Shown: piece by piece, positions 27,022 through 55,570 of the stretch
How the letters are laid out: the number at the start of each line of letters is the position of its first letter
Position numbering within the stretch: position 1 is the first letter of the stretch
NCBI GenBank assembly: GCA_030649345.1
Contig: JAUSKK010000016.1
Coordinates: forward strand, 4,541-68,540
Direction of reading: 5' to 3'
Length of the DNA: 64,000 nucleotides
Source of the DNA: Candidatus Iainarchaeum sp.
GTDB lineage: Archaea > Iainarchaeota > Iainarchaeia > Iainarchaeales > 0-14-0-20-34-12
The notes under the pieces: model-generated
What the model was told of the DNA's origin: nothing
Seen by the model: the letters and a program-made list of their open reading frames with translations, nothing else
Databases searched by the model: none
Made by a program: the position numbers and the translations under genes

Positions 27022-27126
27022 ATAAGACCTTTACTATTATTGATTTAGTATATTTCAGGATGTTGAATACTATTTAATGCAATAATGTATGTATCAATCA
27101 TACCTTTTATTTGTTCAACATCTTGA

Positions 27127-27993
27127 TTAGGTTTTTCTTTGCTTTAAAGAATCGCCTACTTGAATACTGTTTTTACTCCATTCAATTTCTGGAACATTTC
27201 CTGCACCAAAATCAACACTGGTTTCGATTTCAATGGGTACAGAATTTTCATTTTTAATTTCTAATTTTCCGTTAAGCCCTAAAGTAATCACTATATCATT
27301 GCCTGCGTTTCCGGATGTTTTAATTGTAATGGTGCTAACTTGATTGGGGTCTGCATTGTCTTCAATATAGCTGGTTTCCAAAATTTTACTGGAGTCCAAT
27401 ACCTTCAAGTCTATGAATATGCCTTTTGTACAGCTTCCAGTACATTCTTTTACATTGGTGCTTAAACTTTCATAGGACTGATTTTGTAAAGTAATTTGCA
27501 ATTGATATCCTTCAAAATTAATTGTTTTTGGATTGATTTGGAGTATGTTTTGATTTTTGGCTTTTTTTCCGGTTTGCAAAGGATGGCCATAATTTACATC
27601 GTATGGCTGAATGGTTAATTCATTTAAGCTTAAACTGGCTGTGTTCAAATTAATATCTAAATTGTCTTTGTGTTGTCCTGTAAATTTTGCGTAGGTTTCT
27701 AAATCCAAAGCATATTGTTGTTTCCCTTTTTTATCGGGCAATGTTTCTGTAAATGTAATTTTTCCACTTTCAATAATCCAACTGGTTCCTCCAATTTTTT
27801 GCAAAATTTCAGCAATATTATCGGAAATGTTTTCGTATTTGGCCTGCAGGTTTTCCATACCGGCCAATTCTTTAAATCCATTAGAATACAAATCATTGCT
27901 TTTTTGATATTCAATTCCGGCATTCAATAAAAAAAATCCCAGAATCAAAGCAACCATGCTTCCGATAAAGGCTTTATTGTTTTGAAAAATCAT
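27127..27993 (-). CDS. pilin-like protein with N-terminal hydrophobic segment
   Basis: MIFQNNKAFIGSMVALILGFFLL. Confidence 0.4.
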   Translation of the reverse strand: MIFQNNKAFIGSMVALILGFFLLNAGIEYQKSNDLYSNGFKELAGMENLQAKYENISDNIAEILQKIGGTSWIIESGKITFTETLPDKKGKQQYALDLETYAKFTGQHKDNLDINLNTASLSLNELTIQPYDVNYGHPLQTGKKAKNQNILQINPKTINFEGYQLQITLQNQSYESLSTNVKECTGSCTKGIFIDLKVLDSSKILETSYIEDNADPNQVSTITIKTSGNAGNDIVITLGLNGKLEIKNENSVPIEIETSVDFGAGNVPEIEWSKNSIQVGDSLKQRKT

Positions 27994-28511
27994 TGAAGTT
28001 CAGTCTCCAGTTCAGCTAGATAATAACGATAAATTTTTCCATCTTTGAATGTTAAAAACATTCTACGCCCTTTGTTTTGTTTGCCTGTATTTGAATTAAA
28101 CGTATTTCCCAATTTTTGTTCGCTGACTAAACTGAACTGGTTTTCTGAAAAAGTGTATTCTTTTAAAGTTAGTTTCCATTTCCAGTTTGCCGGCAAGCTT
28201 GAGTTAATTAATCGAGTCAATAAATCTGCGTTTAAGCTTTCCAATGCATTTCGTTCATCCAATAAGTCTAAAGTATCATTAATTCTTTTCTGAACATTGA
28301 TGGTCCCCAAACTGTTTTTTTCATTGAATGAATAGTTTGCCAAAAGAGTATATAAGGAAATAAAAATAATCATGGCTAAGACTGCATCCAAGATTAACGC
28401 ATATCCTTTATTGGAATAGCGTAAACGTAAATTGTGCGATTTCTCCATTATATTCCACGGTCCTTTGAATCGAAATTTTTTGAATTGCTTGAGTATCTGA
28501 AATGGGCGCAA
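27990..28511 (-). CDS. pilin-like protein (class III signal peptide; true start possibly the internal Met at 28448)
   Basis: RYSNKG|YALILDAVLAMIIFISLY. Confidence 0.45.
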   Translation of the reverse strand: MRPFQILKQFKKFRFKGPWNIMEKSHNLRLRYSNKGYALILDAVLAMIIFISLYTLLANYSFNEKNSLGTINVQKRINDTLDLLDERNALESLNADLLTRLINSSLPANWKWKLTLKEYTFSENQFSLVSEQKLGNTFNSNTGKQNKGRRMFLTFKDGKIYRYYLAELETELQ

Positions 28512-28893
28512 ATTTTAGCAATTCAATTCCATTTTGTTCTAATTTTAATTCAAATTGGTATTCTTCGATATTCATTTTTTGCTTTAATGTTTCGTAATTT
28601 GAGTCTGTAAATGCATTCCATTTTTCTAAATAAATTATTCGCTTTTCATTTACTAAAGAAGGCGTATTGTAATCTGCCTGCAAATGCCAGTTTTCTGGAT
28701 TTCCAGACTGCATAATTAATACTTCTGCAATTTCCAATGCTTTAACTTCCAATCCATAGGCTTGAGATTGCCGGTTCATTTTGGTTAATTCATTGTTAAA
28801 ACTAACCACAGTAATGCCTACCATAATTACAATCACTATGACTGAAAAAAACAAATCAATGCTTTCAATTTGCGCTTTATTATTTTTAACCAA
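28408..28893 (-). CDS. pilin-like protein (class III signal peptide)
   Basis: MVKNNKA|QIESIDLFFSVIVIVIMVGI. Confidence 0.45.
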   Translation of the reverse strand: MVKNNKAQIESIDLFFSVIVIVIMVGITVVSFNNELTKMNRQSQAYGLEVKALEIAEVLIMQSGNPENWHLQADYNTPSLVNEKRIIYLEKWNAFTDSNYETLKQKMNIEEYQFELKLEQNGIELLKFAPISDTQAIQKISIQRTVEYNGEIAQFTFTLFQ

Positions 28894-29257
28894 ATACCAA
28901 CACCTTGTTTTGATTGGTTATAGTTATATTTCCTGAACCATTGTATTGTCCTTGAAGAACAGCGGCATGAGTACAACTAGCTCCCTGTAAAGCATTTTCG
29001 TCTTTGTTTACAAACACCAGTTGTGCAGTGATGACTACATTGAAATCATTGGCAATAATACTTTGAGTTCTATTTCCTCCCGCATACACACTATTAAGCT
29101 GGGCACTGATTTTTTCACAGCCTATTTTTAGTTCAAAATTTTTGACTGCATTATTTCGCTGAATATCTCCTTGGCCTACATAACTAAGAATGACTGCAAA
29201 AAACAATAAGAGTACAACAAATGCAATTAGCATTTCCATAGATACTTGTCCGCGCAT
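28886..29257 (-). CDS. archaeal type IV pilin-like protein
   Basis: MRG|QVSMEMLIAFVVLLLFFAVIL. Confidence 0.55.
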   Translation of the reverse strand: MRGQVSMEMLIAFVVLLLFFAVILSYVGQGDIQRNNAVKNFELKIGCEKISAQLNSVYAGGNRTQSIIANDFNVVITAQLVFVNKDENALQGASCTHAAVLQGQYNGSGNITITNQNKVLVFG

Positions 29258-29337
29258 AAAATTCTCTCAGTATGTTGAATATTAAGTAATTCAATATATT
29301 TAAATCAAAATGATCTTTTAATTGTTCAACATACTGA

Positions 29338-30765
29338 CTAAGGAAATCCACTGCTGGTATATATCGTTCCGTCACTGAAATTATAATCCAAAGTAACCAC
29401 TTCGCCTACATCGTCAATATCGCCATCAAATTCTAACCTGTTTCCATTACTTTGGTAAACTGTTTGTTTGGGAATATTGAAATCTGTAATATTAATCCAA
29501 GTACCTGTGCTTGCACTTCCACTGAAAACTTGCTGGCCGTTTAATCTAATTTTTTCAATTCGATTGCTTGGATCATTGGTCCAACTGACTTTCATGTGGG
29601 TAATTGTTGTCGTTGCACAATTGCTGGCATTTTCCATGCCCCAATTTCGAATAATTTCTCCGCCTTCAGTGTACTGTGCAGTGCTCCAACTATGCACAAA
29701 GTTTCCATTGGCATTGGAACCATTTACCGCAAATACATTTTGGTCGGTTACAGTATTAATTTTTTTTCCAGTGGCTTGAATGTTCCAATTTCCTTGATTT
29801 CCGCTATTGCAGGAGAGTACAAATGAACTTTGATAAAATCCATCAGCTGTTGTTTTTTCTAATTCTTGATTGACTGTACTTCCTGCTGGATTTTTCAAAA
29901 AAGTATTCAAGTCAGCATTCATTAAGCTTCCGTTTTCATCTGCAGTTCGAACTTCAAAAAATACAGTGTCTCCAAATACAAAACTATTGGCAGGTCCAGT
30001 ATATCCTGAATCACCATAGGTTAGAACATTGACATCTCCCAATTCTTGTCCTACATTAATTTGAATCCATGCAATGGTTTCCAATCCTTGATTGGATTTA
30101 ATAATAATTGCACCTTCATACATTTTGGTTGCTGCATTGCTGGGCACTGTAATGGTTACTGTAAAAATTCCACTAGTTCCAGAATTCAAACTTGAAGGCA
30201 AATTGCTAATTCCAATCATTCCATTCAAACTTGAATCTATACTGGGTGTAATTCCGTTGACTGTAAGATCCGATAAATTGGCTAAATTGTAATCAGTTTT
30301 CACATACACACTTCCTTGCGTCATTTCTCGTGCAAACAATTCAGGTTGTATACTTAATCCTTGTCCGATTTTGACTGTTCCAGAATTATCCAATTGAATC
30401 AATACATCATAAATTCCAGCAGTCATGGGCAAATATCCTTGAACATTTCCATCGGCTAAATAGGTTGCGGTTCCCCCAGTTCCAGCTCCGTATACTGAAT
30501 ACGTCCAGCCAATTTCTTTTCCAGAAACAATGGATTTTTGTATTCCGGAAGGCAAAGAAATTCGAACTAATTTTTGAGAACCTGGACCTAAAGCATATAC
30601 TTCGTTGGCTGCTTGCGTTAAAGACAAAGCACTTGAGCTTAAGGACTCGAATTGAATCTTTTTTTGTGCAATATCGTTGCTGACACTAAACAAAAAGCCA
30701 ACTACAAATATTACAAAAGCCACAATAAACAAGTATTCTACAGATGATTGTGCACGAAATTTCAT
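29338..30765 (-). CDS. large pilin-like protein (475 aa) with class III signal peptide
   Basis: MKFRA|QSSVEYLFIVAFVIFVVGFL. Confidence 0.55.
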   Translation of the reverse strand: MKFRAQSSVEYLFIVAFVIFVVGFLFSVSNDIAQKKIQFESLSSSALSLTQAANEVYALGPGSQKLVRISLPSGIQKSIVSGKEIGWTYSVYGAGTGGTATYLADGNVQGYLPMTAGIYDVLIQLDNSGTVKIGQGLSIQPELFAREMTQGSVYVKTDYNLANLSDLTVNGITPSIDSSLNGMIGISNLPSSLNSGTSGIFTVTITVPSNAATKMYEGAIIIKSNQGLETIAWIQINVGQELGDVNVLTYGDSGYTGPANSFVFGDTVFFEVRTADENGSLMNADLNTFLKNPAGSTVNQELEKTTADGFYQSSFVLSCNSGNQGNWNIQATGKKINTVTDQNVFAVNGSNANGNFVHSWSTAQYTEGGEIIRNWGMENASNCATTTITHMKVSWTNDPSNRIEKIRLNGQQVFSGSASTGTWINITDFNIPKQTVYQSNGNRLEFDGDIDDVGEVVTLDYNFSDGTIYTSSGFP

Positions 30766-30834
30766 ATACTGAATAAAAGAATTTAATCAATTTAATTGTT
30801 CCGTTCAATGGGTTGAACGTGGATATATGTTGAT

Positions 30835-31257
30835 TTAGTCTCGTCCAAATTCTTCTGCAGGAATTTTTCGGTCAATGTCAAATTGTTCTCTTAACAATCG
30901 CTTGGCTATTAATTGTTCAGCTTTACTAATTTGGGTGCCGCCATCTACAATTCGTTCCAGCAATCCAATGGCTCTCCGGTCTTTTCGCATGGCAAATCCA
31001 TAGGTTCCCTGAAATCTATGTTCAAAAAAAAGCATTTTGCGTTCATCTACAGTAAACCTTTTTCCAATTTCAGCTTGTCTTCCTAAATCTTTTAAAACTT
31101 CATCAAAAGGAGAACTTTCTTTGGAAACTTTTCGTTCTGTTGTTCCAGCTACTGGGCTTCTTACACTTCTACTTGCACTAGGGTTTCCAGTTCTTTCTGG
31201 TTTTGCTTTTCCTACAGGTTTATGCATATGCACTTGCATTACTGGTCGTTTCATCAA
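30835..31257 (-). CDS. hypothetical Arg/Gly/Ala-rich protein; compositional outlier (higher GC)
   Basis: ORF track. Composition unlike the neighbouring proteome. Confidence 0.4.
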   Translation of the reverse strand: MMKRPVMQVHMHKPVGKAKPERTGNPSASRSVRSPVAGTTERKVSKESSPFDEVLKDLGRQAEIGKRFTVDERKMLFFEHRFQGTYGFAMRKDRRAIGLLERIVDGGTQISKAEQLIAKRLLREQFDIDRKIPAEEFGRD

Positions 31258-31336
31258 AATTCCTCATTAAATTTTTCACTGAATAAACTTAATTTATGAC
31301 TTTCTTTTTTTATTTCTATTCTATTGATTTTTTGTT

Positions 31337-32671
31337 TTAAATTTCAATCTTTTCTTTCAGTGCTGGAACAAATGCTTGTACTTTTGCTTTTTTTTCTAAT
31401 TCTTTTTGTAATTCCAGTCCTTTGCTTTCTTCTCCGTGTACCAAAAATACTTGTTTGGGTTTGATTTTATTCACAAACTCCAGCAGTCCTTTGTAATCCG
31501 AGTGTCCTGAAAACTTAACTTGTTTCACACAGCAATTGACTTCTATTTTTTTTCCATTTTTTAATTCAATTTCTTTTTCTCCATCCAATAGTTGTCTTCC
31601 AATGGTTCCATGTACTTGGTATCCTGCAATTACAATGCAATGTCTTTGTTCGGGTGCCATGTGTTCAAAATATTTAACGCTGGGCCCGGCGCTTAACATT
31701 CCGCTAGTTGCTAAAATTACGGATTGGGGTGTTTCAACTACATCTTTTTTATGAAATGTTTTCGGTTTTTTAATAACTTTGTCTTTGAATGGATCGTCAT
31801 CCGCTGTTAAAATTCTGTTCGGAATTTCTTTTTTCAGCCAAATTACATTATGTCTGCAAATTCGATTGGCTCTAGTAATCATTCCATCTACAAACAAATT
31901 TAATTCAGGCAAATATTTTGAACGTACATAATTGGTGACTGCAAACATAATTTCTTGTCCTCTTCCGACAGCAAAAGCTGGGACCAAAACATTTCCGTTT
32001 CGTGCAAAAGTTTCTTTAATAATATCCGCCAATTCTTTACTGGCCTTTTGCAAACTAGGCAAAGAATCTTGTTTTCCTCCATACGTGCTTTCCATAATCA
32101 AAGCATCTATTGTTTGATTCGGAATTTCGGCTCCATCCAATAAGTGCGTTTCTCGTATATTGAAGTCTCCAGTGTACAATAACTTTTTTCCATTGTTTTC
32201 CACTAAAATCATACAGCTTCCTGGAATATGTCCTGCATTAAAAAACTCAATGAAAATTTTTGGAAAAACCTCAATTCTTTCCCGATACTCTAACAAACTA
32301 ACTTGTTCTAAGGTTTGTTCAATTCCTTGATTGGAGTAACAGTCTGCTTCTTGTTCTTTTGCAATCTTTAAAGCATCGCTTAACAATAAATGCATTAAAT
32401 CTCTCGTAGGCTTAGTGCAATAAATTTTTCCAGTAAAACCAGCTTCAACCAAAAACGGAATATATCCTGAATGATCTAAATGTGCATGGCTTACAATAAT
32501 GCAGTCCATATTTTTTGCTTTCTTGATAATTCCAACTGGAAATCGTTGTTCAGGCAATTGCGAGCCTAAATTAATTCCGCAATCCAATAAAATATTTTTT
32601 CCATTTGCTTCCAGCAAAAAACAACTTCTTCCCACTTCTCGGACAGCACCTAAAAAAGAAATCTTCATCAA
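31337..32671 (-). CDS. beta-CASP metallo-beta-lactamase family ribonuclease (aCPSF2/RNase J-like)
   Basis: HxHxDH motif (SHAHLDHSG). About 440 aa. C-terminal beta-CASP-type His (FSGHSD...LVHGE). Confidence 0.7.
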   Translation of the reverse strand: MMKISFLGAVREVGRSCFLLEANGKNILLDCGINLGSQLPEQRFPVGIIKKAKNMDCIIVSHAHLDHSGYIPFLVEAGFTGKIYCTKPTRDLMHLLLSDALKIAKEQEADCYSNQGIEQTLEQVSLLEYRERIEVFPKIFIEFFNAGHIPGSCMILVENNGKKLLYTGDFNIRETHLLDGAEIPNQTIDALIMESTYGGKQDSLPSLQKASKELADIIKETFARNGNVLVPAFAVGRGQEIMFAVTNYVRSKYLPELNLFVDGMITRANRICRHNVIWLKKEIPNRILTADDDPFKDKVIKKPKTFHKKDVVETPQSVILATSGMLSAGPSVKYFEHMAPEQRHCIVIAGYQVHGTIGRQLLDGEKEIELKNGKKIEVNCCVKQVKFSGHSDYKGLLEFVNKIKPKQVFLVHGEESKGLELQKELEKKAKVQAFVPALKEKIEI

Positions 32672-33294
32672 TATTCATCCGCCAAAGGTGCAAATACAAA
32701 TTTTCCATTCCGATAACCAACCAATACTAAATTTTGTGGAGTAATCTCTGTTCGTTCTCTAATCTGTACTAATGCAATCAGCAAACGTCTTCCATCCAGA
32801 TTATGCTTGCGTTGAATTTTTTCAAAAAATTTAGTGCCTCGAAGAGTCGGTTCTGATTTGCCCCCAATGCCTAAAATTTCCATGACCGGTATGCCGTGTG
32901 TTTTTCCCATGGCAATTAATTCTTTACTAATTGCATAAGCATTCAATGGCAATAATTGATATAGTTTCGATTTGTATTTTCGATTATGATCCCGGATTCT
33001 TTTTTTGATAAAGTCAATGGTTTCTTGCGCTGTGAACTGGAGTTCATTAACTGAATCTATTCCCATTCTTTGAACTCGCTTAATTACAATTCTTCGCGTT
33101 TTCGGAAAATTTCTGGAAACATTCATTTCACGTATTCGATAACCCCAGTCTCTGGTGCTTGTTGGATCTTGATTAAATGGATTGGTTCCTTGTCTGGGAT
33201 CAATGTTTTTCATTCTGCGCAATCTTGTATCTATTTTAGGCGCTGCTTTTTTCAAGCGTTTAATCAGTTTTTTCGGCAAAATTCGAGTAACCAT
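32668..33294 (-). CDS. hypothetical basic protein
   Basis: ORF track. 4-nt overlap with the upstream RNase gene, suggesting an operon. Confidence 0.4.
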   Translation of the reverse strand: MVTRILPKKLIKRLKKAAPKIDTRLRRMKNIDPRQGTNPFNQDPTSTRDWGYRIREMNVSRNFPKTRRIVIKRVQRMGIDSVNELQFTAQETIDFIKKRIRDHNRKYKSKLYQLLPLNAYAISKELIAMGKTHGIPVMEILGIGGKSEPTLRGTKFFEKIQRKHNLDGRRLLIALVQIRERTEITPQNLVLVGYRNGKFVFAPLADEY

Positions 33295-33354
33295 TTCAAT
33301 CCTATCAATACTTCAAACGCATTATTTAAGCCTATTTTGGTTGGCTTATTGAGT

Positions 33355-33945: not shown

Positions 33946-33948
33946 ACC

Positions 33949-34028: not shown

Positions 34029-34652
34029 TTAGCGTGCCGGCCTGAATCGTTTAATGGTGCCAACATCTAAAATATACAAACTTCCAGTTTTGGTCTTAGG
34101 GTCTAACTCAATTGTAAATGCTTCCATAGGAATTACCCAGCCATTTTTTGCAGCTAGTGTGACTGCTGTTTGAATTTGTTTTTGAATCACTGGATAATTT
34201 TTAATTCCACGAAAAGTTCCTGCCTGTTCCATTAACACCAGCAAAGAATTCGCTCCAGCCGGCCAGTGATTTTCTGGCAACTCAATAAATCTTCCAGGAT
34301 TTAAGTCCATTAATTTTTTTCCTTTTAATCCCAATCGTGTTAAAATTAAACTGGCAGCTCCAGAACTGTTAACTTTTAATCGTACTGTTCTCGGAAAAAG
34401 TTTTCTAGGTAAAAATCCCATCAAGCTTTTGAATGTTAAATAATCCTGCGAAGCTGTAGTTTTATGCGAAGGCGGATTTTCATGATATCTTTTTTCAGCT
34501 AAACTAACTCGATGTTTTCCTCTTCTATATTCCAAAGCTTCAACAACCCCTTGTCCACCGCGTCCAATTTCTCTTCCCTGAACAATACTTCCCTTCAAAG
34601 TATTTCTTCTTCCGCCTGCTAAATGAAATCCTCGTAGTTTACGTGCCTGCAT
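34029..34652 (-). CDS. small protein-kinase-fold-like protein (atypical; RIO/Bud32-like traits), paralog A
   Basis: Gly-rich loop GRGGQGVV. LAEK Lys. HGW...N replaces HGD...N. DVG replaces DFG (LYILDVGTIKR). Paralogous to 35142..35696. Confidence 0.4.
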   Translation of the reverse strand: MQARKLRGFHLAGGRRNTLKGSIVQGREIGRGGQGVVEALEYRRGKHRVSLAEKRYHENPPSHKTTASQDYLTFKSLMGFLPRKLFPRTVRLKVNSSGAASLILTRLGLKGKKLMDLNPGRFIELPENHWPAGANSLLVLMEQAGTFRGIKNYPVIQKQIQTAVTLAAKNGWVIPMEAFTIELDPKTKTGSLYILDVGTIKRFRPAR

Positions 34653-35139: not shown

Positions 35140-35141
35140 TT

Positions 35142-35696
35142 TTATTTTTTAGATTGAATTTTCCGAATACTTCCTAAATCCACAATATATAATTTTCCAT
35201 ATCCTGTGCTTGGATTCCAGTCTGCCATGAATGCATTAAACGGCAAAATAAATCCATGCGCCTTTGCAGTTTCCATAACTGTTTCCATTTCTGTAAATAA
35301 AGCTTTCCTGTTTTTTACTTGACCTAAAACTTCCGAGTATCGTACTTTCCATAAATCCAATACCTGATTTCCATTTCTTCCAAGTTGAGTCATTATCAAA
35401 CTAGGTCTTTTTCCTTTTTCTAACTTTAAACGGACTGTGGGTAAAAATAATTTTTTTGGCAAAAATGTCTGCAAGGCTTTAACCATTTGAAAATCTCTTC
35501 GCGCATTTGTAAACGGATAATAAGTTCTATATTCTTTTTCTGCTAAATGGATTGTATGCTTTCCTTTTGAATACGTAAATTCAAATATAGTTCCATCGTC
35601 TCCGCCTAAATCCAGCATTTTTTTCTGAACTCCTGTATTTCCTGTAATTTTTTTCCTTCCACCCAGTAAGCGAATCTTTGGTTTTGGTTTAAACAT
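35142..35696 (-). CDS. small protein-kinase-fold-like protein, paralog B
   Basis: HLAEKEY, HGFILPFN and LYIVDLGSIRK. Shared FLPKKLF-PTVRLK block with paralog A. Confidence 0.4.
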   Translation of the reverse strand: MFKPKPKIRLLGGRKKITGNTGVQKKMLDLGGDDGTIFEFTYSKGKHTIHLAEKEYRTYYPFTNARRDFQMVKALQTFLPKKLFLPTVRLKLEKGKRPSLIMTQLGRNGNQVLDLWKVRYSEVLGQVKNRKALFTEMETVMETAKAHGFILPFNAFMADWNPSTGYGKLYIVDLGSIRKIQSKK

Positions 35697-40645: not shown

Positions 40646-41827
40646 TTGTTCAGGTTCCCTAATATACTTATGTCTAAAGAACAAAACTTAGTTCCGGCTT
40701 TAGAAATTCCGAATATTACTTTGGCTTTCTTGGTTCAAGAACTCCAGCCTCAATTATTGAATGCCTATGTCAACAAAATCCAACAAATGTCCAATCAAAT
40801 TCTTAAATTCAAAATTCACACAAAAACCGGAGATCGCACTTTATTAATTACATCCAATTCAATTTACTTTACCAATTATTCTACGCAAGCTAAACCCAAT
40901 CCTACTTCATTTGCTTCTTTTTTAAACAAACACTTGTACAATGAACGCATTTTAAAATTTGAACAAATAACCAGCGAACGAATTATTGTACTTGAATTTC
41001 GTTCCTGTAAATTATATTGTGAATTGTTTGCGCAAGGAAACATTATTCTCACCGATTTAAACAATCAAATTTTGATGCCATTCAAACCCAAATCTTGGAG
41101 TGTACGTACTCTCCGAAAAGGAGAAACCTATCAATTGCCTCCAGCCCGCGGTTCCAATCCATTTACTGTTTCTGTCCAAGAATTTTCCAAAGCCATTCAA
41201 GCCAGTCCTAAAAATTTAGTTCAATCTTTAATTGCAACTGTCAATTTAGCTCCCGTAATTGCTGAACAAATTTGTGCGGATATAAAACTCGAAAAAACAA
41301 TTCAACCCAATACTTTGACTTCCAAACAAATTCAATCCTTATTTCATCAACTGCAATTTTATTACATCCAATCTTTGCAAAAAATACCCCAACCCAGCTT
41401 ATTGGAAAACCCAACTAAAACTATTCTTTTACCTTATTCTTTGCCTTTACACGTTCAATTTGTATCCAAAGAATACACTTCTTTTACAGAAGCCTTGGAT
41501 GAACTTAATTTAGGAAAAATTACTCAATCCAATCCTCAAGAAGTTGAAGAACAAAAAACTCAAACCAAAAAATTTTCAGAATTAGAATATTCCATTCAAC
41601 AACAGCATGTTTTATTCAAAGAATGCGAAGAAAATGCTGTTCTGTATGCTCAATTGGGCGAAAAAATTTATGAAAATTATTCAGCTTTGTCTGAAGTAAT
41701 TTTATGGATTCAAGAAAATACAAACCCGAAAATAAATTCCCCTGAAATTCTTGAAAAACTTAAGCAAAAATTTCCATTCATTCAAGAAATGGATCTCCGA
41801 AAAAAAGAATTAATTGTGGATCTATGA
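40646..41827 (+). CDS. NFACT-N domain protein (Rqc2/NEMF/FbpA family homolog, short form)
   Basis: N-terminal pattern typical of NFACT-N: ...DRTLLITSNSIYFT...PTSFASFLNKHLYNERILKFEQITSERIIVLEF. Confidence 0.5.
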   Translation: MFRFPNILMSKEQNLVPALEIPNITLAFLVQELQPQLLNAYVNKIQQMSNQILKFKIHTKTGDRTLLITSNSIYFTNYSTQAKPNPTSFASFLNKHLYNERILKFEQITSERIIVLEFRSCKLYCELFAQGNIILTDLNNQILMPFKPKSWSVRTLRKGETYQLPPARGSNPFTVSVQEFSKAIQASPKNLVQSLIATVNLAPVIAEQICADIKLEKTIQPNTLTSKQIQSLFHQLQFYYIQSLQKIPQPSLLENPTKTILLPYSLPLHVQFVSKEYTSFTEALDELNLGKITQSNPQEVEEQKTQTKKFSELEYSIQQQHVLFKECEENAVLYAQLGEKIYENYSALSEVILWIQENTNPKINSPEILEKLKQKFPFIQEMDLRKKELIVDL

Positions 41828-41900
41828 AATAAACTATTTTATTTTAAAATAATATTATTCCTAAAAAAATTATTGAAATGAACCAAAATTAAATTTGAAT

Positions 41901-41936
41901 TCAATATGTTGAATATTAACATTCAACATATTGAAC
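41901..41936. promoter_or_regulatory. 15-bp perfect inverted repeat with 6-bp spacer between convergent genes
   Basis: ttcaatatgttgaat-attaac-attcaacatattgaa. Confidence 0.5.
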
Positions 41937-41955: not shown

Positions 41956-42222
41956 TTACTCTAAAGGACCAGCTAATTCTCGTTCATCTACAATAAAAAC
42001 ATCGCTTACTGCTGTGACAGCCGAGTAAGGTACTTCAATGGTTTTATCTCTTGGCTGAATTTTTTTCACAATCTTACTGGTGCGATCTACTTCAATTAAA
42101 AGTTTTTCAATTTCACCGGTTTTTTCGTTAATTAATAAATCGGTTAATCTTCCCAATTCATCGCCCCTATTGGTTATGACTCTTTTTGCAGCTAATTGTC
42201 TTGCAATCGTATATTTGTACAT
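41956..42222 (-). CDS. PRC-barrel domain protein
   Basis: 88 aa, small beta-barrel pattern (GDELGRLTDLLINEKTGEIEKLLIEV). Confidence 0.45.
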   Translation of the reverse strand: MYKYTIARQLAAKRVITNRGDELGRLTDLLINEKTGEIEKLLIEVDRTSKIVKKIQPRDKTIEVPYSAVTAVSDVFIVDERELAGPLE

Positions 42223-42693: not shown

Positions 42694-45600
42694 ATGGCTA
42701 AGAGAGTTGCGTTGCGCACAGTTCTATGCATAGCATTATTTTTCTTTAGCTTAGGCTGTTTGGACCAAAAAAATTTTGCAAAAAACCAACAGCTCTGTTA
42801 CCAAGTGTCTGTTCTATCTTCACCCAATATTCCTTCATGCACTTCCCAATCTGCTTGTTTTGAAAAAGTTAATTCTTCTATTTTAAACTTTGATTACTCT
42901 GCATTTGATTTACAAATTACTCAAAAATTTTTTGAATACAAAAACCAGCTGGCTTTATCTTGGCATTATTTTAATCAATCCAAAAACGAATTTGAAAAAC
43001 TTCAAACCCTGTGCCAATCTGCAGACTTTCAATCTCTGCCAGAACAATTAACTCAAATTAGTTTTTACTTAAATCAAGCATTTGAATCTGCCTTGAAAAC
43101 CAATCGCATTTCTTTTGAAATCATTGCCTTGGAAGCATTCCTTTTAGAACAACAACACATTGACTTAATTCCAGAAAGCAACCTGCACATACACTACACT
43201 ATTTTATTGGATAATTTAAATCAAGCTCATTCTCAAATAATTATTCCCAATTCCTATTACCAAAATTATTCGCAAGCCCTTCAAGAGTTTGAAAATTTTG
43301 CACAACTCCAAGGCTTCCAATCTTTTATTGCAGAACCTGTTACTTTTTTAGATTTATTCCATATTTCGAGTCAGCGTTTTCCCAGTAAACTAAATTCTGA
43401 AGAACCTTTCTTTTTTCCAACTCTTAAAACATATGTTCCAAAAGTGTTCAATTTTGCCTATCAATCCCAGCGCATTCAGGATTCAACTACTTTCCTTCAG
43501 CAGCTTCAATCCTTTGATTTAATTCAAAAATATTCACAAATCGCAGCAGTCCAAAATTCTGTGCCCTCCCAGTTTTCAATTCTTTTTTCCACTCTGGCGT
43601 ATGAAAAATCTTTTACAATTTCGCAAAATCAAACTCAGTTTAAAATTCTCCAAACTAAATTAAACGGTCTTGAACTGCGCTGGCAGTCGTTTCAAGAACT
43701 AGACTTTAATCGAACATTTCCTGTTCTGTTTTCCTCCATAAATTCAAAATTGATTCAGCTCCAAGACAAAATTATGCGAAAACGAATTACTTTCGGTGAA
43801 GCTTCCAAAATTATTTCCAATTTATCCAGTAATCTTTCCGGAATAGATCAAAAACTTTCTTTTTGGTCTTCCGCGATCCAACAAGAACTTTCCAATTGTT
43901 CGGAGATTCCCAAAAATGTTTCGCTTAAAGAAAAACTTTGGATTTGCAGAAATCCACCCAAACCTTTGCTGGAAGTGTCTAAACAATCTATGCATTGCTT
44001 AAACGATTGGAATTTACTGCAAAACATTGACTGGATTCAACGCAAACTTGATTTAGATTTCAAAACAATTTCCTATTCTGGCTGTCCGCAAACACTTTTT
44101 TTGCGTTTAACTCAAATTCATTCTTGGCCGGAAATTCAAAATCTACTTTTAATTCGAACAGAATTTTTAACCTTATTAGAACAAACGCAACCACTCCGGC
44201 CTTTTCTTTCGGAAACACTGCGTATGCGATTTCAAGCACTTGAAAAAAAAACTTCAGAATTTGAAGTTAATTTTTTTGAAAATAAAATTTCCATTCAAGG
44301 TCTTCAAATTTTTTCAACACTTCCTTCTCTTCTGTTGAAACTCCACCAAGAACTTTTAGATTTGTCTGCAGAAAGTTTAGCATACTATTTTTCTCAAAAT
44401 CCAATCTTGGAATTTTCTCCAACATACACTCAAGGTAAACTTAAATTTGAAAACTCTTTTTTTGATTTAAATTATCCAGTTCAATTTTCCATTCCTTGGC
44501 CTTTGTCCATTTTAGATTTAGATTTAAATTCTATGAATTCCAGTAAAATTCAAATCAGCAAAGATCATTCTAAAATTACGTTTATTTTTCCCCAAATTTC
44601 CATGGGAACGTTATCCATTCCTTTTTTTGGAAATACGTCAGCATTTTTTTCCGAAAATGTGTCTTTTTTGAAAATAACTTCAGAAGAACTCTTGATGAAA
44701 AATCAATTAAAAATCCATCAAACCATTCAGCCAGCTAATTTTTTGGTTGCACTTTCCAATTTTGATTTATCCATAAATCAAGTATTTGTTTTCTTTAATC
44801 AATCCAGTATTCCAGCTTACGCTGAAAATAATTCTTTAAAATTTTCACTTCCAGTGGTTTCTGCTCAAGATACTTTAGAAATCTTATATTCTTTAAATCA
44901 GCCAATACTCGTAACTATTCAATCGCAACAAAACATTCCGGAAAATACCCCAAAGTTTACTCAAATTTTGACTTTTTCTGTTCAAAACAAAAGTTCTACT
45001 GAATTTTCGAATATTCAAATTACTCTGCCATTTTCTTCCAATCCGTTCATTGAATCCATTTCTGCTTTTTCTGAAAACGAAAAAATTCCAGTGCAAATGC
45101 ATTCAGATAGTCTTTCCATTATTTTTCCAAAACTTTATCCTAAAGCGCAAGCTGTTTTTTCTGTAAATTTGGACATCGAAAACCGTTCTCAATTTTTTCA
45201 AGCACGCATAACTGAACTCGAAGAAAAATCACTCCAGCTTCAAAATCCAGAAATGTATTCTATGCAAATACTGGCATTTAAACAAAAACAAGGATTGTCT
45301 GAAGATTTTGACCAATTATTGGCATTGGAAAAACAAATTCAAATTTCTCTGGAAACCGAAATTAAAAATCAAGAATTTTTAGATCAATTTCGTTTTAAAG
45401 AAAATTTGTTTTTAATCCAGCAAAAAAATTTGACTCATGACTTTAATTTACTGAACCAGTCTTTACCGATTGAGTTTCAGCAAGCTCAGCAATTCTATCA
45501 AGACGCACGCTCCAGTTTAAATTCTGATCCAGTTCAATCTATGCGCTGGCTAACCCAAGCTCAAATAACTTTAAATAAAATAAATTTTGAAACCTACTTT

Positions 45601-46503
45601 AAGTCAACTCAGCAGGTATTGGAAGAAAAATTTCTGGAATTAAAACAAGTCCACGAATTTCTTGCAAGTCTGAATATTTTAGATTCCAGTGAAACAACAT
45701 TGTTTTTTTCTCTTCAAGACAAAATCCAATTCATTTCTTCTGTTCAAATCATTCAATCTTCTTTTTACGATGTATTTAAAGAATTTTTTTCCAACTCTCA
45801 AGACTTGAATTTAACCCAAATACGTTTGCTGAAAACAGCTCAAGCTCATGCTGGGACTGAAATTAAAAAATTTCGTACTCTGCTGGAGTTTCCAGAATTA
45901 CCTAAACTTAAAGCAGAACTGGAAGCTGTTCAGTCTCATTCTTGGTTGTCGGATTATTATTTTCCTTTGTTAACTCTTAAAGATTTAGATTTAATGCAAA
46001 CCACTATAGACAAAATTATTCAAAGTTCTTTGTTTTCCAAATTGGAATCTTTTGAAAATGATCTTGAAACCAATATGCTGCAAGCCTTGAAAGCTTTTCA
46101 TAAAATTGAACCAGAATTAATTCAAAAAATTCAATTAATGGAGTCATTTCAATTTTCGCTGCGTTCTTTTTCTGCAGAATTGCAAAAAGACGCTATGCTT
46201 TTTTATGAAAAAGCTCAAGCAACAGGATTAGATACTGCTGAATTCAAAACTGCTTTAGATAAAGCCAAACGCTTAATTGAAAATAAAAATTACTTGAAAT
46301 CTATTTCCATTACAGGTTTACTAACTACAGTTCCATCTTCTTCTGTTTTTCCCATTCATTGGGTTTTATTATTTTGCGTTTTATTGATTACCTCATTTTT
46401 AGGATATAAAAAAATAACGCAACCCAAACTTAAAAAAAGAAAACGCAAATTGCGTTCTTTACTTTCGAGTCCAAAGAACAATCAAGATAGCCAAAGCCAC
46501 TAA
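42694..46503 (+). CDS. large (1269 aa) surface protein with N-terminal signal peptide and C-terminal TM anchor plus basic tail
   Basis: Signal peptide (LCIALFFFSLGC). C-terminus is VLLFCVLLITSFLGYKKITQPKLKKRKRK. Confidence 0.55.
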   Translation: MAKRVALRTVLCIALFFFSLGCLDQKNFAKNQQLCYQVSVLSSPNIPSCTSQSACFEKVNSSILNFDYSAFDLQITQKFFEYKNQLALSWHYFNQSKNEFEKLQTLCQSADFQSLPEQLTQISFYLNQAFESALKTNRISFEIIALEAFLLEQQHIDLIPESNLHIHYTILLDNLNQAHSQIIIPNSYYQNYSQALQEFENFAQLQGFQSFIAEPVTFLDLFHISSQRFPSKLNSEEPFFFPTLKTYVPKVFNFAYQSQRIQDSTTFLQQLQSFDLIQKYSQIAAVQNSVPSQFSILFSTLAYEKSFTISQNQTQFKILQTKLNGLELRWQSFQELDFNRTFPVLFSSINSKLIQLQDKIMRKRITFGEASKIISNLSSNLSGIDQKLSFWSSAIQQELSNCSEIPKNVSLKEKLWICRNPPKPLLEVSKQSMHCLNDWNLLQNIDWIQRKLDLDFKTISYSGCPQTLFLRLTQIHSWPEIQNLLLIRTEFLTLLEQTQPLRPFLSETLRMRFQALEKKTSEFEVNFFENKISIQGLQIFSTLPSLLLKLHQELLDLSAESLAYYFSQNPILEFSPTYTQGKLKFENSFFDLNYPVQFSIPWPLSILDLDLNSMNSSKIQISKDHSKITFIFPQISMGTLSIPFFGNTSAFFSENVSFLKITSEELLMKNQLKIHQTIQPANFLVALSNFDLSINQVFVFFNQSSIPAYAENNSLKFSLPVVSAQDTLEILYSLNQPILVTIQSQQNIPENTPKFTQILTFSVQNKSSTEFSNIQITLPFSSNPFIESISAFSENEKIPVQMHSDSLSIIFPKLYPKAQAVFSVNLDIENRSQFFQARITELEEKSLQLQNPEMYSMQILAFKQKQGLSEDFDQLLALEKQIQISLETEIKNQEFLDQFRFKENLFLIQQKNLTHDFNLLNQSLPIEFQQAQQFYQDARSSLNSDPVQSMRWLTQAQITLNKINFETYFKSTQQVLEEKFLELKQVHEFLASLNILDSSETTLFFSLQDKIQFISSVQIIQSSFYDVFKEFFSNSQDLNLTQIRLLKTAQAHAGTEIKKFRTLLEFPELPKLKAELEAVQSHSWLSDYYFPLLTLKDLDLMQTTIDKIIQSSLFSKLESFENDLETNMLQALKAFHKIEPELIQKIQLMESFQFSLRSFSAELQKDAMLFYEKAQATGLDTAEFKTALDKAKRLIENKNYLKSISITGLLTTVPSSSVFPIHWVLLFCVLLITSFLGYKKITQPKLKKRKRKLRSLLSSPKNNQDSQSH

Positions 46504-49177: not shown

Positions 49178-50275
49178 ATGCATAATTTTGTTCAAAAAAC
49201 ATCCATGCTTTTCTTGTTAGTCTTAGTTTTGGTTAGCTTAGGGTGTACTTCAAGTACTCCTTCAGATCAAACAACCAATTCACTGCCTGCAGACACTCAA
49301 ACAACACTTGGCCAATCGAATGATTCTGATACCACTGTTGATGGCACAGCTGGAACTAGTCCAGATACTGACGTTGTTGTAGTTGAATATGAATTTTCTT
49401 TGTCTTCCAGTGAACCTATTTCGAGTTTATCTGACTCTGAATTAAGCTCTGCTGCTGAAGGTTTTTCTAGAATAATTCCTAAAAAAGTCAAATTAGTAAA
49501 CAGTTTTTCGTTTTCAGATATTGAAACCATTTTAAGTAATTCTGAAGATCTGCAAAGTTTTGGATTTAACACTGTCTTGATTCGTATACCGTATACTGTG
49601 ACTTCAGAAGGATTATTTGAATTAATCCAAAAAGGAAATTTGTCGGAATCTGATACTGAAAAATTGTTTGAAACCTATGTTGTTTTAGCTAAACAAAAAC
49701 ATTGGGCTGTATGGATAGCTCCTTCTTTTTCAGTGTCTGAATCATTGATTGCATTGCCGGACTTTCAAGTTAAAGCCAAAGAACTTTCGTTTAAATGGGC
49801 TGCAGTTGCACAAAAATATTTCGCAGACTTTTTTTCTCCTGCAATTGTTATAGAATCTGCTTTTCAAAAATTAACGGATAGCGAACGCAGAACTTTAGAT
49901 GAGACTACTTCGTTTTATGAATCTATTGCATTTAGTTTGCCTACTTACTATACTGGCCCGTGTATTGTTTATTTAGCCAATTCAAGTCAGTCAGGTTATT
50001 TTAATAAAGGAACTTGCAAATGGGTGGCTTTTGATTTAACTAAAACTTCAAGTCAATTAACTGCTTCGATTGAACGATTTGAAGCCATTGCAGATAACTG
50101 GCAGGTAAAATTTATTCCAGTTCAAATTGTGGACGGAAAAGAACTATACTCAGACTTATTTACCGCACTCCAAGGACAAGAATTCGCTGGCGGTTTAGGC
50201 TTAACGAATTTGTCTTGGTTAAATGACAAAGAATTTAGAGATTCTTTTAAAGAATTTTTAATAGAATTTAAGTAA
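49178..50275 (+). CDS. secreted lipoprotein-like protein (LVSLGC)
   Basis: Signal peptide with a Cys. Ser/Thr-rich linker. Confidence 0.45.
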   Translation: MHNFVQKTSMLFLLVLVLVSLGCTSSTPSDQTTNSLPADTQTTLGQSNDSDTTVDGTAGTSPDTDVVVVEYEFSLSSSEPISSLSDSELSSAAEGFSRIIPKKVKLVNSFSFSDIETILSNSEDLQSFGFNTVLIRIPYTVTSEGLFELIQKGNLSESDTEKLFETYVVLAKQKHWAVWIAPSFSVSESLIALPDFQVKAKELSFKWAAVAQKYFADFFSPAIVIESAFQKLTDSERRTLDETTSFYESIAFSLPTYYTGPCIVYLANSSQSGYFNKGTCKWVAFDLTKTSSQLTASIERFEAIADNWQVKFIPVQIVDGKELYSDLFTALQGQEFAGGLGLTNLSWLNDKEFRDSFKEFLIEFK

Positions 50276-50291
50276 TTAATTTATGGTTGAT

Positions 50292-52184: not shown

Positions 52185-52375
52185 TTAAAATCCTCCGGAT
52201 TTTAATATATAAAATTCCTTGAATTTTATAATTGTAAAAATTCTTCAAATTTTTACAAATTTTTTAAATTTTCGTTAAAATTTAAATCCATAGTTTCTTC
52301 CCGAGTGTGTTTATATAAAAATGCAAAATAATTTTTTCCTAGCAAAAGGCATGCTAGTTTTTTTAGCTCTCTTTT

Positions 52376-53026
52376 TTAGTTGATTGTTCTATTTTTTTCT
52401 TCTTCTACTAATTTTTTGATAGCTTCGTCATCCAATAGTCTGGCTCCGTTTGTGTCAATGACCATGATGGTAATGCTTCGTCCGCCAGTATAAATGTCTC
52501 TTTTTTTGCTGGCTAAAATAGCGCGAGTCACTAAATGCAGTCCGTCATCTAAGTTCATATTGTCTTTATAGTTTTGATCCAATACAGTTAAAGCCAAAGT
52601 AGTTCCGCTTCCAGAAGTTGCAAATTGGCTGCGTTCTAAATATCCGCCAAAAGGCATTAATTCAAATAATTCTGGTTTGCGAATCATTCCAGCTAAAATA
52701 AATTGCACTTCAAAAGGGAAATATCGATTGGCATTTAATACATTGGATATGTAGGTTGCCATGGCTTTAGCTGTCATAGGCGTGTCTCGTTCAATTTCAT
52801 ATAATTTAGCATGGGCTTGCAAGAATCGAAGTAAAGTCATACTGTCTGCAACGCTTCCTGCAGTTGTAAGTGCTGTCTTGTCTGTGACTTTGTATATTTT
52901 TTGAGATTCTTGATCGTAGCTTAAATGCCCTAAAGTAGCTTGCATATCTGCAGCTAAAATAACCGCGTCTTTGACAACAATTCCTACTGTTGTTGTTCCT
53001 GTTTTCAATTCATTTTGTGAAACCAT
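52376..53026 (-). CDS. psmB: proteasome subunit beta
   Basis: Propeptide followed by the catalytic Thr (KTG|TTTVGIVVKDAVILAADMQAT). Confidence 0.8.
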   Translation of the reverse strand: MVSQNELKTGTTTVGIVVKDAVILAADMQATLGHLSYDQESQKIYKVTDKTALTTAGSVADSMTLLRFLQAHAKLYEIERDTPMTAKAMATYISNVLNANRYFPFEVQFILAGMIRKPELFELMPFGGYLERSQFATSGSGTTLALTVLDQNYKDNMNLDDGLHLVTRAILASKKRDIYTGGRSITIMVIDTNGARLLDDEAIKKLVEEEKNRTIN

Positions 53027-53144
53027 TAAAAAACCTGTTTTTTTTAAATTTTGTTACAAAATTTAAACCCATAAAAATTCCTGATAGAAACTAGAACCCT
53101 CTATATCCATGAACTACGGTTTATTTTAAAAAGGTTCCGTCCGT

Positions 53145-53873
53145 TTAGTTTTCTTCTTCACTGTGCTCATGTTCTTCGGTTTTATTGTAATTTTTTAAGT
53201 CTTCTTTTTTGAATTCATCAATGAATTTTACTTTTTTGACATCGTCTAAATATTTTAACAAAGCAACAGCTGTATGGTGTCTTCCGTGCATGGATTTAAA
53301 GAAATCTTTTCCATCCAATTCAATACTGACTTCTGCATTTCCGGACTTTACATTTTCGGAATTCACAAAAGGCAAATATTTTTTGGCAATGGCTTTCATT
53401 TTTTCATTTTTATCTGTAATTTGATCAACTACTTTAATATCATATTCTAAAGTTTTTCCTGCCAATGGGTGATTGAAATCTACGCGGACTCTTCCTCCGC
53501 TGACAGTTTGAACTCTTCCTTGCATATCATTTAAGCTAACTGCCAATCCTGGAACTGGCATAATGTTTCTGTTTTTAAATTCCTGTAATGGAACTAGGCG
53601 CACCAACTCTGCCTTTCGTTCTCCGAATGCTTTGCTTGAATTAATTTGAATGTTTTTGTTTTCTCCAATTTTCATTGTCTTTAAGTTTTCCTCTAATTCT
53701 GGCAAAATTTCATGGTTTCCTAAAATAAGTGTTAACGGCTGATAGTTGAAATCTTTATTGTAAATCCCTGCTTCAATGGCTTTTTGTTCATTCGTAGTAT
53801 CAAATATTTCTTGTTTTTCTTTGTCTTTTGCTGTAAAATCAATCTGTACAATATCTCCATCTTTTAATGCCAT
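53145..53873 (-). CDS. FKBP-type peptidyl-prolyl cis-trans isomerase (archaeal long type)
   Basis: N-terminus is MALKDGDIVQIDFTAK...IFDTT. Acidic C-terminal tail. Confidence 0.6.
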   Translation of the reverse strand: MALKDGDIVQIDFTAKDKEKQEIFDTTNEQKAIEAGIYNKDFNYQPLTLILGNHEILPELEENLKTMKIGENKNIQINSSKAFGERKAELVRLVPLQEFKNRNIMPVPGLAVSLNDMQGRVQTVSGGRVRVDFNHPLAGKTLEYDIKVVDQITDKNEKMKAIAKKYLPFVNSENVKSGNAEVSIELDGKDFFKSMHGRHHTAVALLKYLDDVKKVKFIDEFKKEDLKNYNKTEEHEHSEEEN

Positions 53874-54025
53874 TAAAAAACCTCCTTGTTTTTTAAAGTT
53901 TTTAAATTCTTCAAATTTATCGCCATTAGAAATCGTTTTTTTACTAGCTATTAAAGATATTAGTAAAAGGTATGTTTTTTAACCTTCTGTTAAGGCTGTT
54001 CAGAGTGTTGAATGAATAAAAATCA

Positions 54026-55570
54026 TTGATCCATAAGTTTATTCCATTAATTAGTATTCAACACTCTGCCGAACCAAATCCATGCCTTTTTAACTTTTTG
54101 TTTTATTATATATCTATTCACTATTCTGCGGGGATGTACTTGAATTCAAATGGATTAACTTCAAATCAAATTTTTATTATTGTAATTGCTGTCTTAATGA
54201 TTACATCTACAGTAGGCTTTTCTTTAGCTTTTGGAAACAATTCTTCTACTCAGCCAGTGGATGATCCTTTATTGAATCAAGCCAATACTTCTACATCTAT
54301 TGTTTTGGAAGCTAAAGAAGTAGAAGGAATCATTGATCGTTTTTTGCCTCAAGTTCGAATTGCAGGCTACACCGATAATTTGAATATTGACGAAATTGAT
54401 GCCCAAATTTTAGCCACGGATTCAGTTGAAACTGTTTTATCTTCTGAATTTTCGACCCAAGCCAATTCCAGTCAATTAGTTTATGTTGCAGATGTTGTTC
54501 TCCAACAAGACATTACTGCTTTAGATGCCGCAAATGAGTTAACTGAAAAAGCCAATTTTTTGTCTGAATTGCAAATGATTTCCAAAGCTTTAATTAAATT
54601 GCCGGAAAAAGTCACGGCAACCAATGCGGAATTAAATATTTCCAAAGAATATTCTTTGCCTCAGCCGTTTGTAGAAGCTTTAGCTCAGCTTACGTTTAAT
54701 GAAGGCGATATTGTTTTCTTGGATCTGCGAATGAATTTAGTTAACAATGTAATTCAAATCACCAATGCAGCTATTACTGGAAATGTCAGTCAAACACAAT
54801 TTGAATTTTCTACACAAGCTAAAGTTAAAGTTGCGGAATTAGAACCTAGATTGGTTTTTTCCGGAGAATTTATTTACTCTGGTTTTGACGTAAATGTCAT
54901 TGAACAAGAAATAAAAGAAGAAGTTCAAGACGTAAATGAAACCAAAGTTCGTGTTTATTTTGGTGAACGCAATATTTTGGTTGGATTAGAACTTATTCGA
55001 AATGATTTAAATATTCAAGATTTACAAGCATTGGCTGCAAGAGCTTCCCTCAATTTTTTAGGAAGTGAAATTTTAACTGACAACAACACAACCACTTTAG
55101 CTATTGAATACAACGGAGGTCAATTGGATTATTTTCTTATTCGGGAAGATTTACTGGCTGCACTTGAAGAAGCAGGCTATCAAAAAGATGTGGATTTTAC
55201 TTTTTTAGATACCCAAGCAACCATTCAAGGAGAAGTTGTTTTTTCCAGCCTTGAAGAAATGACTGCCAAAGTAATTGCTTTACGAAAAATTTTATCGGAA
55301 AAATACAAAATTACCACAACCGATGTTCCAGTTCATCAAGTCGCAAAACTCCAAGCCTTAGAGCCTTTAGTGGATTCGTCTCGAAATCAGTCATTTGATT
55401 ACAATACTTTGTTTTCGGGTCTTGTATTGGTCGGAAACCAAGTTAATGATGAAATTACTTTACCTATTGCAGTACAAGTCCAAGGCCGAACGATTACCTA
55501 TGCTCAAGGAGTTCAAGGAACCCAGCAAGACATAATTGTAACTCACGGTCCTGAAGAAGAATCTGAATAA
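54026..55570 (+). CDS. hypothetical membrane-anchored extracellular protein (start uncertain; possibly the internal Met before the TM)
   Basis: TM segment (IFIIVIAVLMITSTVGFSLAF). Confidence 0.4.
   Translation: MIHKFIPLISIQHSAEPNPCLFNFLFYYISIHYSAGMYLNSNGLTSNQIFIIVIAVLMITSTVGFSLAFGNNSSTQPVDDPLLNQANTSTSIVLEAKEVEGIIDRFLPQVRIAGYTDNLNIDEIDAQILATDSVETVLSSEFSTQANSSQLVYVADVVLQQDITALDAANELTEKANFLSELQMISKALIKLPEKVTATNAELNISKEYSLPQPFVEALAQLTFNEGDIVFLDLRMNLVNNVIQITNAAITGNVSQTQFEFSTQAKVKVAELEPRLVFSGEFIYSGFDVNVIEQEIKEEVQDVNETKVRVYFGERNILVGLELIRNDLNIQDLQALAARASLNFLGSEILTDNNTTTLAIEYNGGQLDYFLIREDLLAALEEAGYQKDVDFTFLDTQATIQGEVVFSSLEEMTAKVIALRKILSEKYKITTTDVPVHQVAKLQALEPLVDSSRNQSFDYNTLFSGLVLVGNQVNDEITLPIAVQVQGRTITYAQGVQGTQQDIIVTHGPEEESE

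Follow-up and report, generated by a model that had tools for sequence, protein, structure and literature searches.

A family of intergenic hairpin repeats in a genome fragment of a Diapherotrites archaeon

The window, i.e. the whole stretch of 64,000 nucleotides from contig JAUSKK010000016.1 that was analyzed here, stems from a DPANN archaeon (Candidatus Diapherotrites metagenome-assembled genome; G+C 34%), and its short intergenic spacers harbor the family of hairpin-forming repeats that is the subject of this study. Coding sequences occupy 90.7% of the annotated span, leaving 9.3% non-coding DNA. The archaeal core functions encoded in the window comprise FttA/aCPSF1, a proteasome subunit, a Hel308-type helicase, Pus10, ThyX, NFACT and FKBP; Pfam scans took in 40 open reading frames (ORFs), and KaiC-like ATPases, GAPDH and PGK were read from ORF translations only. 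A type IV pilus-like operon combines genes for an ATPase and for T2SSF-type membrane proteins with genes for pilin-like proteins that carry class III signal peptides. Its ATPase is 100% identical to MDO8427992.1 and the next-closest homologue is only 69% identical, indicating that the host has no close sequenced relative in the searched collections.

Copies and architecture of the repeat family

The copies of the repeat are compiled in Table 1. The window contains five full-length copies (68-70 bp) and one minimal palindrome (copy D), which corresponds to a density of about one copy per 11 kb. A hidden Markov model (HMM) built from copies A, B and E retrieved two further copies at 12.9 kb, and copy-versus-copy comparisons with nhmmer yielded E-values from 5e-20 to 5e-5. 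The covariance model (CM) scored the five full-length copies with 52-90 bits, and the next match after D was noise (15 bits).

Table 1. Positions, arms, predicted folds and neighboring genes of the repeat copies in the window.
Copy	Position	Strand	Form and arms	CM score	Predicted fold	Position relative to genes
G1	12854..12922	+	full length, degenerate left arm CAAAATATTAAC; tandem with G2	R1 51.9 bits, E 9e-8		
G2	12925..12993	+	CAAGGTATTGAA / TTCAATACCTTG, perfect 12 bp	86.6 bits	RNA -18.4 kcal/mol, z -3.9	1 nt past TAG of polyprenyl synthetase 12995-14092(-); gene-sense = minus strand
A	27056..27125	+	27056-27070 / 27111-27125	90.5 bits, E 2e-15	RNA -21.3 kcal/mol, z -4.4	between pilus-operon genes 27127-27993(-) and 25894-27021(-); upstream stop TAA
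B	29268..29336	+	29268-29280 / 29324-29336, perfect 13 bp	83.4 bits	RNA -20.2 kcal/mol, z -4.9	between pilin-like genes 29338-30765(-) and 28886-29257(-); upstream stop TAG, next ATG 10 nt on
D	41900..41935	.	arms-only minimal variant, perfect 15-bp arms, 6-nt loop, no internal segment	36 bits on either strand, 37 internal model positions deleted	DNA -12.6 kcal/mol, z -7.3	between convergent NFACT 40646-41827(+) and PRC-barrel 41956-42222(-)
E	54001..54068	-	54001-54013 / 54056-54068; CAGAGTGTTGAAT / ATTCAACACTCTG, perfect 13 bp	76.9 bits minus strand vs 35 bits plus strand	RNA -21.7 kcal/mol, z -5.6	divergent gap between FKBP 53145-53873(-) and membrane-protein gene, most likely start ATG 54134(+), 65 nt from E

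The initial annotation had listed five near-identical palindromic sites. Four of them are indeed repeats with a TGTTGAA/TTCAACA core and correspond, apart from small coordinate errors, to copies A, B, D and E; B was placed at 29285-29334 with its start about 17 nt off. The fifth site, located at 30802-30819, is no member of the family, because its arm order is reversed (TTCAA..TTGAA) and it was missed by HMM and CM. It forms a 7-bp hairpin (CGTTCAA-tggg-TTGAACG) 15 nt past the stop of ORF 30835-31257(-), and its order resembles the junction of adjacent elements. An additional hairpin proposed at 12911-12936 turned out to span the boundary of the tandem copies, where the right arm of G1 is followed by the left arm of G2. 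The pair at 41543/41595 inside an ORF was rejected as its arms are not extended.

The consensus arms of 12-14 bp (CAG-N-R-T-R-TTGAAY ... RTTCAA-Y-A-Y-N-CTG) flank a conserved A/T-rich core of 42-45 nt, and the sequence TTGAA/TTCAA is unchanged across all copies. Spacers had been described as varying between 3 and 42 nt; in fact those of the full-length copies all measure 42-45 nt, and the element has a constant length. The alignment of A and B with E in reverse complement documents that the spacer itself is conserved as well, with the common motifs AATGCAATA, ATCAAT and CTTTTNNTTGTTCAA. Every full-length copy exhibits a T4-T5 tract just ahead of its 3' arm on the better-folding strand. The dispersed copies differ from one another by 20-40%. 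The tandem copies G1 and G2 share 59 identical internal and right-arm bases, and G1, with four transitions or transversions in its left arm and four non-pairs in the stem, has lost the ability to fold (DNA fold -1.8 kcal/mol, z +1.3). Both orientations of A, B and E, though not of G2, contain mini-ORFs of the type MLNxx-stop, which were taken as a by-product of the palindrome.

The matches might represent chance palindromes of AT-rich intergenic DNA, given that the bare core occurs at its random frequency (GTTGAA: 69 observed versus 68 expected in the window) and that other short palindromes are present in AT-rich spacers, too. The longer core TGTTGAAT was observed 14 times versus 6.8 expected; six of these occurrences are located in the elements and the remaining eight in ORFs, and hence its excess is due to the copies of the element only. 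However, homology extends along the entire copies, with E-values down to the lower limit given above, and a 24-base gapped pattern fitting all four intact copies (A, B, E, and G2) has three matches versus 0.00 in shuffled sequences. Perfect inverted repeats of at least 13 bp are present four times versus 0.54 times in dinucleotide shuffles (shuffle maximum 2). Moreover, five of five loci are intergenic although the annotated span is predominantly coding. Homology, shuffle and CM results thus refute the origin of the matches by chance. The departure from chance concerns the paired and extended arms, not the bare core.

Hairpin stem and siting between genes

The structural conservation of the 14-bp stem is reflected by 55 paired cells out of 56 across the four intact copies, and compensatory double changes were found in four of the 14 stem pairs (four sequences only). 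Sliding the partner column by one to three positions reduced the pairing to 35-44%. The between-copy identity amounts to 68-89% in the arms and 56-77% in the interior, so that the arms are about as divergent as the interior. The arms vary yet stay paired, and together with the compensatory changes this shows that the hairpin is maintained. Single-sequence RNA folds of the intact full-length copies range from -18 to -22 kcal/mol (z -3.9 to -5.6), and B, E, G2 and D have significant DNA folds, too. One of the two original proposals, i.e. a family of small hairpin-forming repeats, is accordingly supported by the full-length homology over 68-70 nt, the constant length, the co-varying arms and the folding energies. 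Two additional structures remain unclaimed: an inner helix P2 (5 bp, AAUAA/UUAUU), which is compatible with three of the four intact copies (A, E, and G2) and shows zero double changes, and a hairpin P3, which is out of register among the copies.

The two strands of the element are not equivalent. Seven of the eight wobble pairs (G.U/G.T type) are located on one strand, namely plus for A, B and G and minus for E, and a single one on the other. Folding is stronger on the wobble-rich strand, both in the consensus (alifold -17.6 vs. -14.3 kcal/mol) and in single sequences (-18 to -22 vs. -16 to -19 kcal/mol).

In the window, the element is located exclusively between genes, and it occupies tandem gaps (three loci), a divergent gap (E) and a convergent gap (D). 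The presence in all three types of spacers argues against a dedicated role as promoter, operator or terminator. At the three tandem loci the gene-sense hairpin begins exactly 1 nt past the stop codon (TAA-t-CAAG, TAG-t-CAGT, and TAG-a-CAAGG). The pilus operon harbors two of the six copies, rather than the three sites originally assigned to the pilin and pilus cluster; the others adjoin polyprenyl synthetases, FKBP and a membrane protein, and NFACT and a PRC-barrel protein. The polyprenyl synthetases 11741-12808 (-) and 12995-14092 (-) are tandem paralogues with nothing but the G1-G2 pair between them. No copy is flanked by a direct repeat that would represent a target-site duplication (flanks T/A, T/A, G/A, C/T, and A/T).

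Oligo-T is an archaeal terminator signal, and it is found directly past the stop codon of many other genes in the window. The sense-strand hairpin of the element is followed by GAAATATAC, AGAGAATTTT, GACAAGG or CCGAACC and thus by no U-tract, and the T4-T5 tract is internal and located on the antisense strand. An intrinsic-type terminator of the upstream gene was rejected for the lack of this U-tract, and an action of the elements as terminators or processing sites, as the initial annotation had considered, is doubtful.

Relatives, functional alternatives and known repeat systems

Our comparison with relatives is based on four Diapherotrites contigs (about 80 kb) with ATPases that are 62-64% identical and with the same order of the pilus operon. 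They contain zero CM matches and essentially no perfect inverted repeats of at least 12 bp. The spacers between their pilus-operon genes upstream of the ATPase measure 0-59 nt, except for one 164-nt gap (L151), versus 105 nt for the spacer of A and 80 nt for that of B. From the absence of the element in syntenic relatives and from their short spacers it follows that A and B are lineage-specific insertions of about 70 bp, rather than regulatory parts that the pilus operon has conserved.

The proposal of a shared operator for a pilus regulator has to be judged on this basis. The pilus operon and other genes would be co-regulated by a protein that, as a dimer or tetramer, occupies both inverted half-sites, which agrees with the invariant TTGAA/TTCAA core, with the two copies inside the operon and with a TATA-like box TTAATATT (-29 to -22) within B. 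However, arm positions beyond the core change and still remain complementary, which a protein-binding site would not require. The distance between the half-sites is 42-45 bp in five copies, compared with 6 bp in D; the next start codon is located at a distance of 35, 10 (B) and 43 nt at the three tandem-gene loci and of 65 nt for E, and D even lies between convergent genes. The genes next to the element are functionally unrelated, only a third of the copies reside in the operon, and the syntenic operons of relatives lack the element. An operator is therefore highly improbable.

The exact start of the hairpin 1 nt after TAA, TAG and TAG would fit a functional cis-acting RNA of operon transcripts, i.e. 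an intercistronic or 3'-untranslated hairpin that is selected whatever its origin. It would stabilize the upstream mRNA, act on terminating ribosomes by stalling or coupling them, or label a site of processing. The stable stems with compensatory changes are in agreement with such a role, and the 3' arm of B, which ends 10 nt before the ATG, could occlude initiation unless an upstream ribosome unwinds it. Furthermore, repetitive extragenic palindromic (REP) sequences of E. coli that lie no more than 15 nt from a stop codon have been reported to stall ribosomes and to lower expression, as summarized in PMC12306157. On the other hand, the divergent copy E and the convergent copy D follow no stop codon, wobble pairs and folding energies favor the strand that is antisense to the flanking genes, and the relatives do without the element in the same operon. 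We thus consider a selected cis-acting RNA as possible, yet on balance rather unlikely.

The preference for the antisense strand could alternatively reflect independent small non-coding RNA (ncRNA) genes on the strand with the G.U pairs and the T-tract, or terminators of divergent antisense transcription from the downstream promoter. Better folding, the predominance of wobble-type pairs and the T4-T5 tract of each full-length copy are all found on this strand, which points away from the promoter of the downstream gene at all four loci. However, the 10 nt between B and the next ORF leave no room for a promoter of its own, and termination at a T-tract that precedes the 3' arm would remove the conserved stem from the transcript. 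The ncRNA proposal is further weakened by the lack of an Rfam family match and of C/D boxes, and both variants are very unlikely. Our search of the whole window with Rfam recovered nothing at the gathering threshold and only noise (E at least 0.5) around A and B, and neither tRNA nor tmRNA genes were found in the window. The archaeal C/D box small RNA was explicitly rejected: the candidate C box reads RUGUUGA instead of RUGAUGA, the 3' CUGA is inconsistent among the copies, and no Rfam match was obtained. The candidate C box also pairs perfectly with the opposite arm, which makes a kink-turn impossible. An archaeal origin recognition box or dif-like site was ruled out from the sequence, on box order, position or context.

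REPINs of Proteobacteria are doublets of REP sequences that are mobilized by RAYT (REP-associated tyrosine) transposases, IS200/IS605-like TnpA enzymes whose genes the repeats flank. They form hairpin doublets with a spacing of about 71 bp and frequent compensatory changes (PMC3116915). According to the same study, they represent units of about 70 bp with inverted ends, a less conserved spacer and stem compensation; they are confined to extragenic DNA, occur in tandem clusters and are free of target-site duplications. The current family resembles REPs and REPINs in the unit length of about 70 bp, the two inverted conserved ends, the less conserved spacer, the predicted long hairpin of single-stranded DNA or RNA and the stem compensation. 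It is likewise strictly extragenic in the window, forms a tandem cluster, lacks target-site duplications and often lies just past stop codons. The hairpin feature of the inverted doublet is present in the form of the 14 pairs with four double changes described above, and as to copy number, six copies are present in 64 kb, all within the non-coding fraction. In contrast, the arms CAGTATGTTGAAT, CAGAGTGTTGAAT and CAAGGTATTGAAT have neither an internal palindrome nor a GTAG/CGTC tag, whereas REP ends are short, imperfect and G+C-rich palindromes with such a tag. The family is A/T-rich and located in a DPANN archaeon, no RAYT gene was seen within the 64 kb (scanned ORFs), and its copies are far more divergent than a REPIN population around a master sequence.

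Miniature inverted-repeat transposable elements, or MITEs, including those of archaea, are comparable in being small, non-coding, multicopy and intergenic, in their terminal inverted repeats of 12-15 bp and in their lineage-specific insertion into compact spacers. Unlike MITEs, which are DDE-transposase derived, the element has no target-site duplication, and the window contains no parent insertion sequence (IS) whose ends match. Its arms co-vary instead of simply decaying, and its 69 bp place it close to the lower size limit of MITEs. Because defining properties of REPs and classical MITEs are missing, we liken the element to REPINs and MITEs in its working and claim membership in neither.

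Integron attC sites are structured recombination sites of 57-140 bp, conserved in fold rather than in sequence, that directly follow ORFs arrayed in one direction. They have reportedly been discovered in archaea recently. The motif GTTGAAT fits GTTRRRY and ATTCAAC fits RYYYAAC, but the order of the boxes is reversed: attC sites carry 5'-RYYYAAC...GTTRRRY-3' in the outermost position, whereas GTTGAAY ... RTTCAAC is found here on both strands, inside the CAGNN/NNCTG ends of the stem. Moreover, no integrase domain was detected in the Pfam-scanned ORFs, and the neighbors are syntenic core genes rather than cassettes, with an order of the pilus operon that is retained in the four relatives. An attC site was therefore rejected.

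Searches beyond the window retrieved no further copy among the matches listed. A loose pattern (TGTTGAAYA-N(28-48)-TTTT-N(3-7)-TTCAACAY) matched, among the matches listed for the genome collection, unrelated bacteria by chance, and none of these matches obtained a score with the family HMM. The 24-base pattern hit 28 loci in metagenome contigs, all of them chance matches by HMM and CM; a pattern scan of viral contigs gave 0 matches, and blastn against phages gave no match below E 0.08. An autonomous IS with matching ends was found neither in the window nor in the pattern scans of the collections, which among the matches listed returned chance only.

Several other features of the window are independent of the repeat. 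The ORF 14718-17690 (-) encodes a RecJ/GAN-like DHH-DHHA1 protein that is split by an intein, the latter carrying a LAGLIDADG homing-endonuclease domain, and it contains a perfect 14-bp inverted repeat (15835-15848 / 15919-15932). The cumulative GC skew is lowest at about 56-58 kb, and the ORF 55809-56699 (+) weakly resembles the Rep3_N initiator WH1 domain, with an E-value of 8e-4 that does not pass the cut-off; both observations could be due to an origin or to the boundary of an integrated element. Short-loop palindromes composed of A/T only and based on TTTAAA, e.g., TTTAAATTTTG-taa-CAAAATTTAAA, form clusters at 52208-52286, 53043-53067 and 24251-24366. For the FttA gene, the proteasome gene and the T2SSF-like gene 23373-24251 they lie 15-45 nt upstream of the start codon, and they may represent symmetric promoters with TATA box and B recognition element or a separate operator family. 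Basic K/R-rich ORFs without Pfam match (34029-34652, 35142-35696, 32668-33294, 30835-31257, and 21860-22321, all on the minus strand) could encode lineage-specific nucleic-acid-binding proteins; the first two look paralogous, as the motifs 'LAEK.Y' and 'LYI.D.G.I' are present in both. The positions 57822-58468 (+) and 9444-9842 (+) were noted for a VapBC-like toxin-antitoxin layout, i.e. a small ORF overlapping a PIN_2-domain gene, and for a Fic/DOC-domain ORF that is also present in the window. The Thy1 domain of ThyX (7749-9392 (+), 547 aa) is restricted to residues 316-505, with no Pfam match in the N-terminal approximately 300 residues. Finally, two very large ORFs lack a Pfam domain, namely 1511-6352 (+) with 1613 aa (E 0.001) and 42694-46503 (+) with 1269 aa (E 0.01).

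Origin and possible effects of the element

The reading that we prefer, with moderate confidence, is that the sites represent a lineage-specific, non-autonomous interspersed hairpin repeat of about 69 bp, which is REPIN- or MITE-like. Such an element would spread or duplicate as one unit, as illustrated by the tandem copies G1 and G2; tandem pairs with one decayed copy are also found in REPIN clusters. It would survive solely in those short non-coding gaps that a compact DPANN genome leaves between its genes. The hairpin would be kept because the pairing of its arms is selected or copied, most likely as single-stranded DNA or RNA of one particular strand. Mobilization would proceed via a hairpin intermediate, with an enzyme that would be encoded elsewhere in the genome. 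Within operons only those insertions may be tolerated that keep the T-tract off the sense strand, and the terminator activity of oligo-T in archaea would explain this filter. Once part of an operon mRNA, a hairpin 1 nt past the stop may alter the stability of the 3' end or the termination of translation, which would parallel the reported effect of stop-proximal REPs in E. coli.

Some observations weigh against this scenario. The evidence consists of six copies in one 64-kb window, and the lack of any copy among the matches listed for genomes, metagenomes and viral contigs means that mobility is not demonstrated. Transposase, RAYT and integrase domains were not detected in the Pfam-scanned ORFs of the window. 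The divergence among the dispersed copies is unlike that expected from recent transposition, and the conserved interior may have a function of its own. Furthermore, passive survival in spacers would not predict a spacing as precise as the +1 found behind three stop codons, which points to a target preference or to a function in translation termination. IS200/IS605-type elements insert by single-strand transposition 3' of their target. The +1 spacing suggests either a comparable insertion 3' of a TAR-N target or a termination-coupled function like that of the E. coli REPs.

These two options can be extended to a more specific, albeit unlikely, explanation, i.e. a lineage-specific translation-coupled RNA device or an archaeal REPIN-like system with an unknown single-strand transposase targeting TAR-N. 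In the translation-coupled variant, the terminating ribosome would have to melt the 5' arm, as the hairpin starts exactly 1 nt past the stop. The translation of the upstream cistron would thereby be linked to the folding of the intercistronic RNA, and this folding in turn to mRNA stability, processing or the initiation of the next cistron.

DPANN genomes are tiny and tightly packed. To our knowledge, small hairpin repeats such as REPs, REPINs and MITEs are well studied in bacteria and hardly described in DPANN archaea. The novelty of the current family is modest: its sequence is new, the type of element is known, the archaeal lineage is under-studied and the adjacency to stop codons is intriguing. 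The family does not reveal a pilus regulon; it rather indicates that an interspersed repeat of this kind is able to colonize a reduced archaeal genome, even inside an essential-looking pilus operon. If copies are confirmed genome-wide, the repeat would provide a strain-typing marker for the lineage, a handle on the mobilizing enzyme, e.g., via IS ends with CAGNRTGTTGAAY, and a natural test of the effects that stop-adjacent hairpins have on archaeal gene expression.

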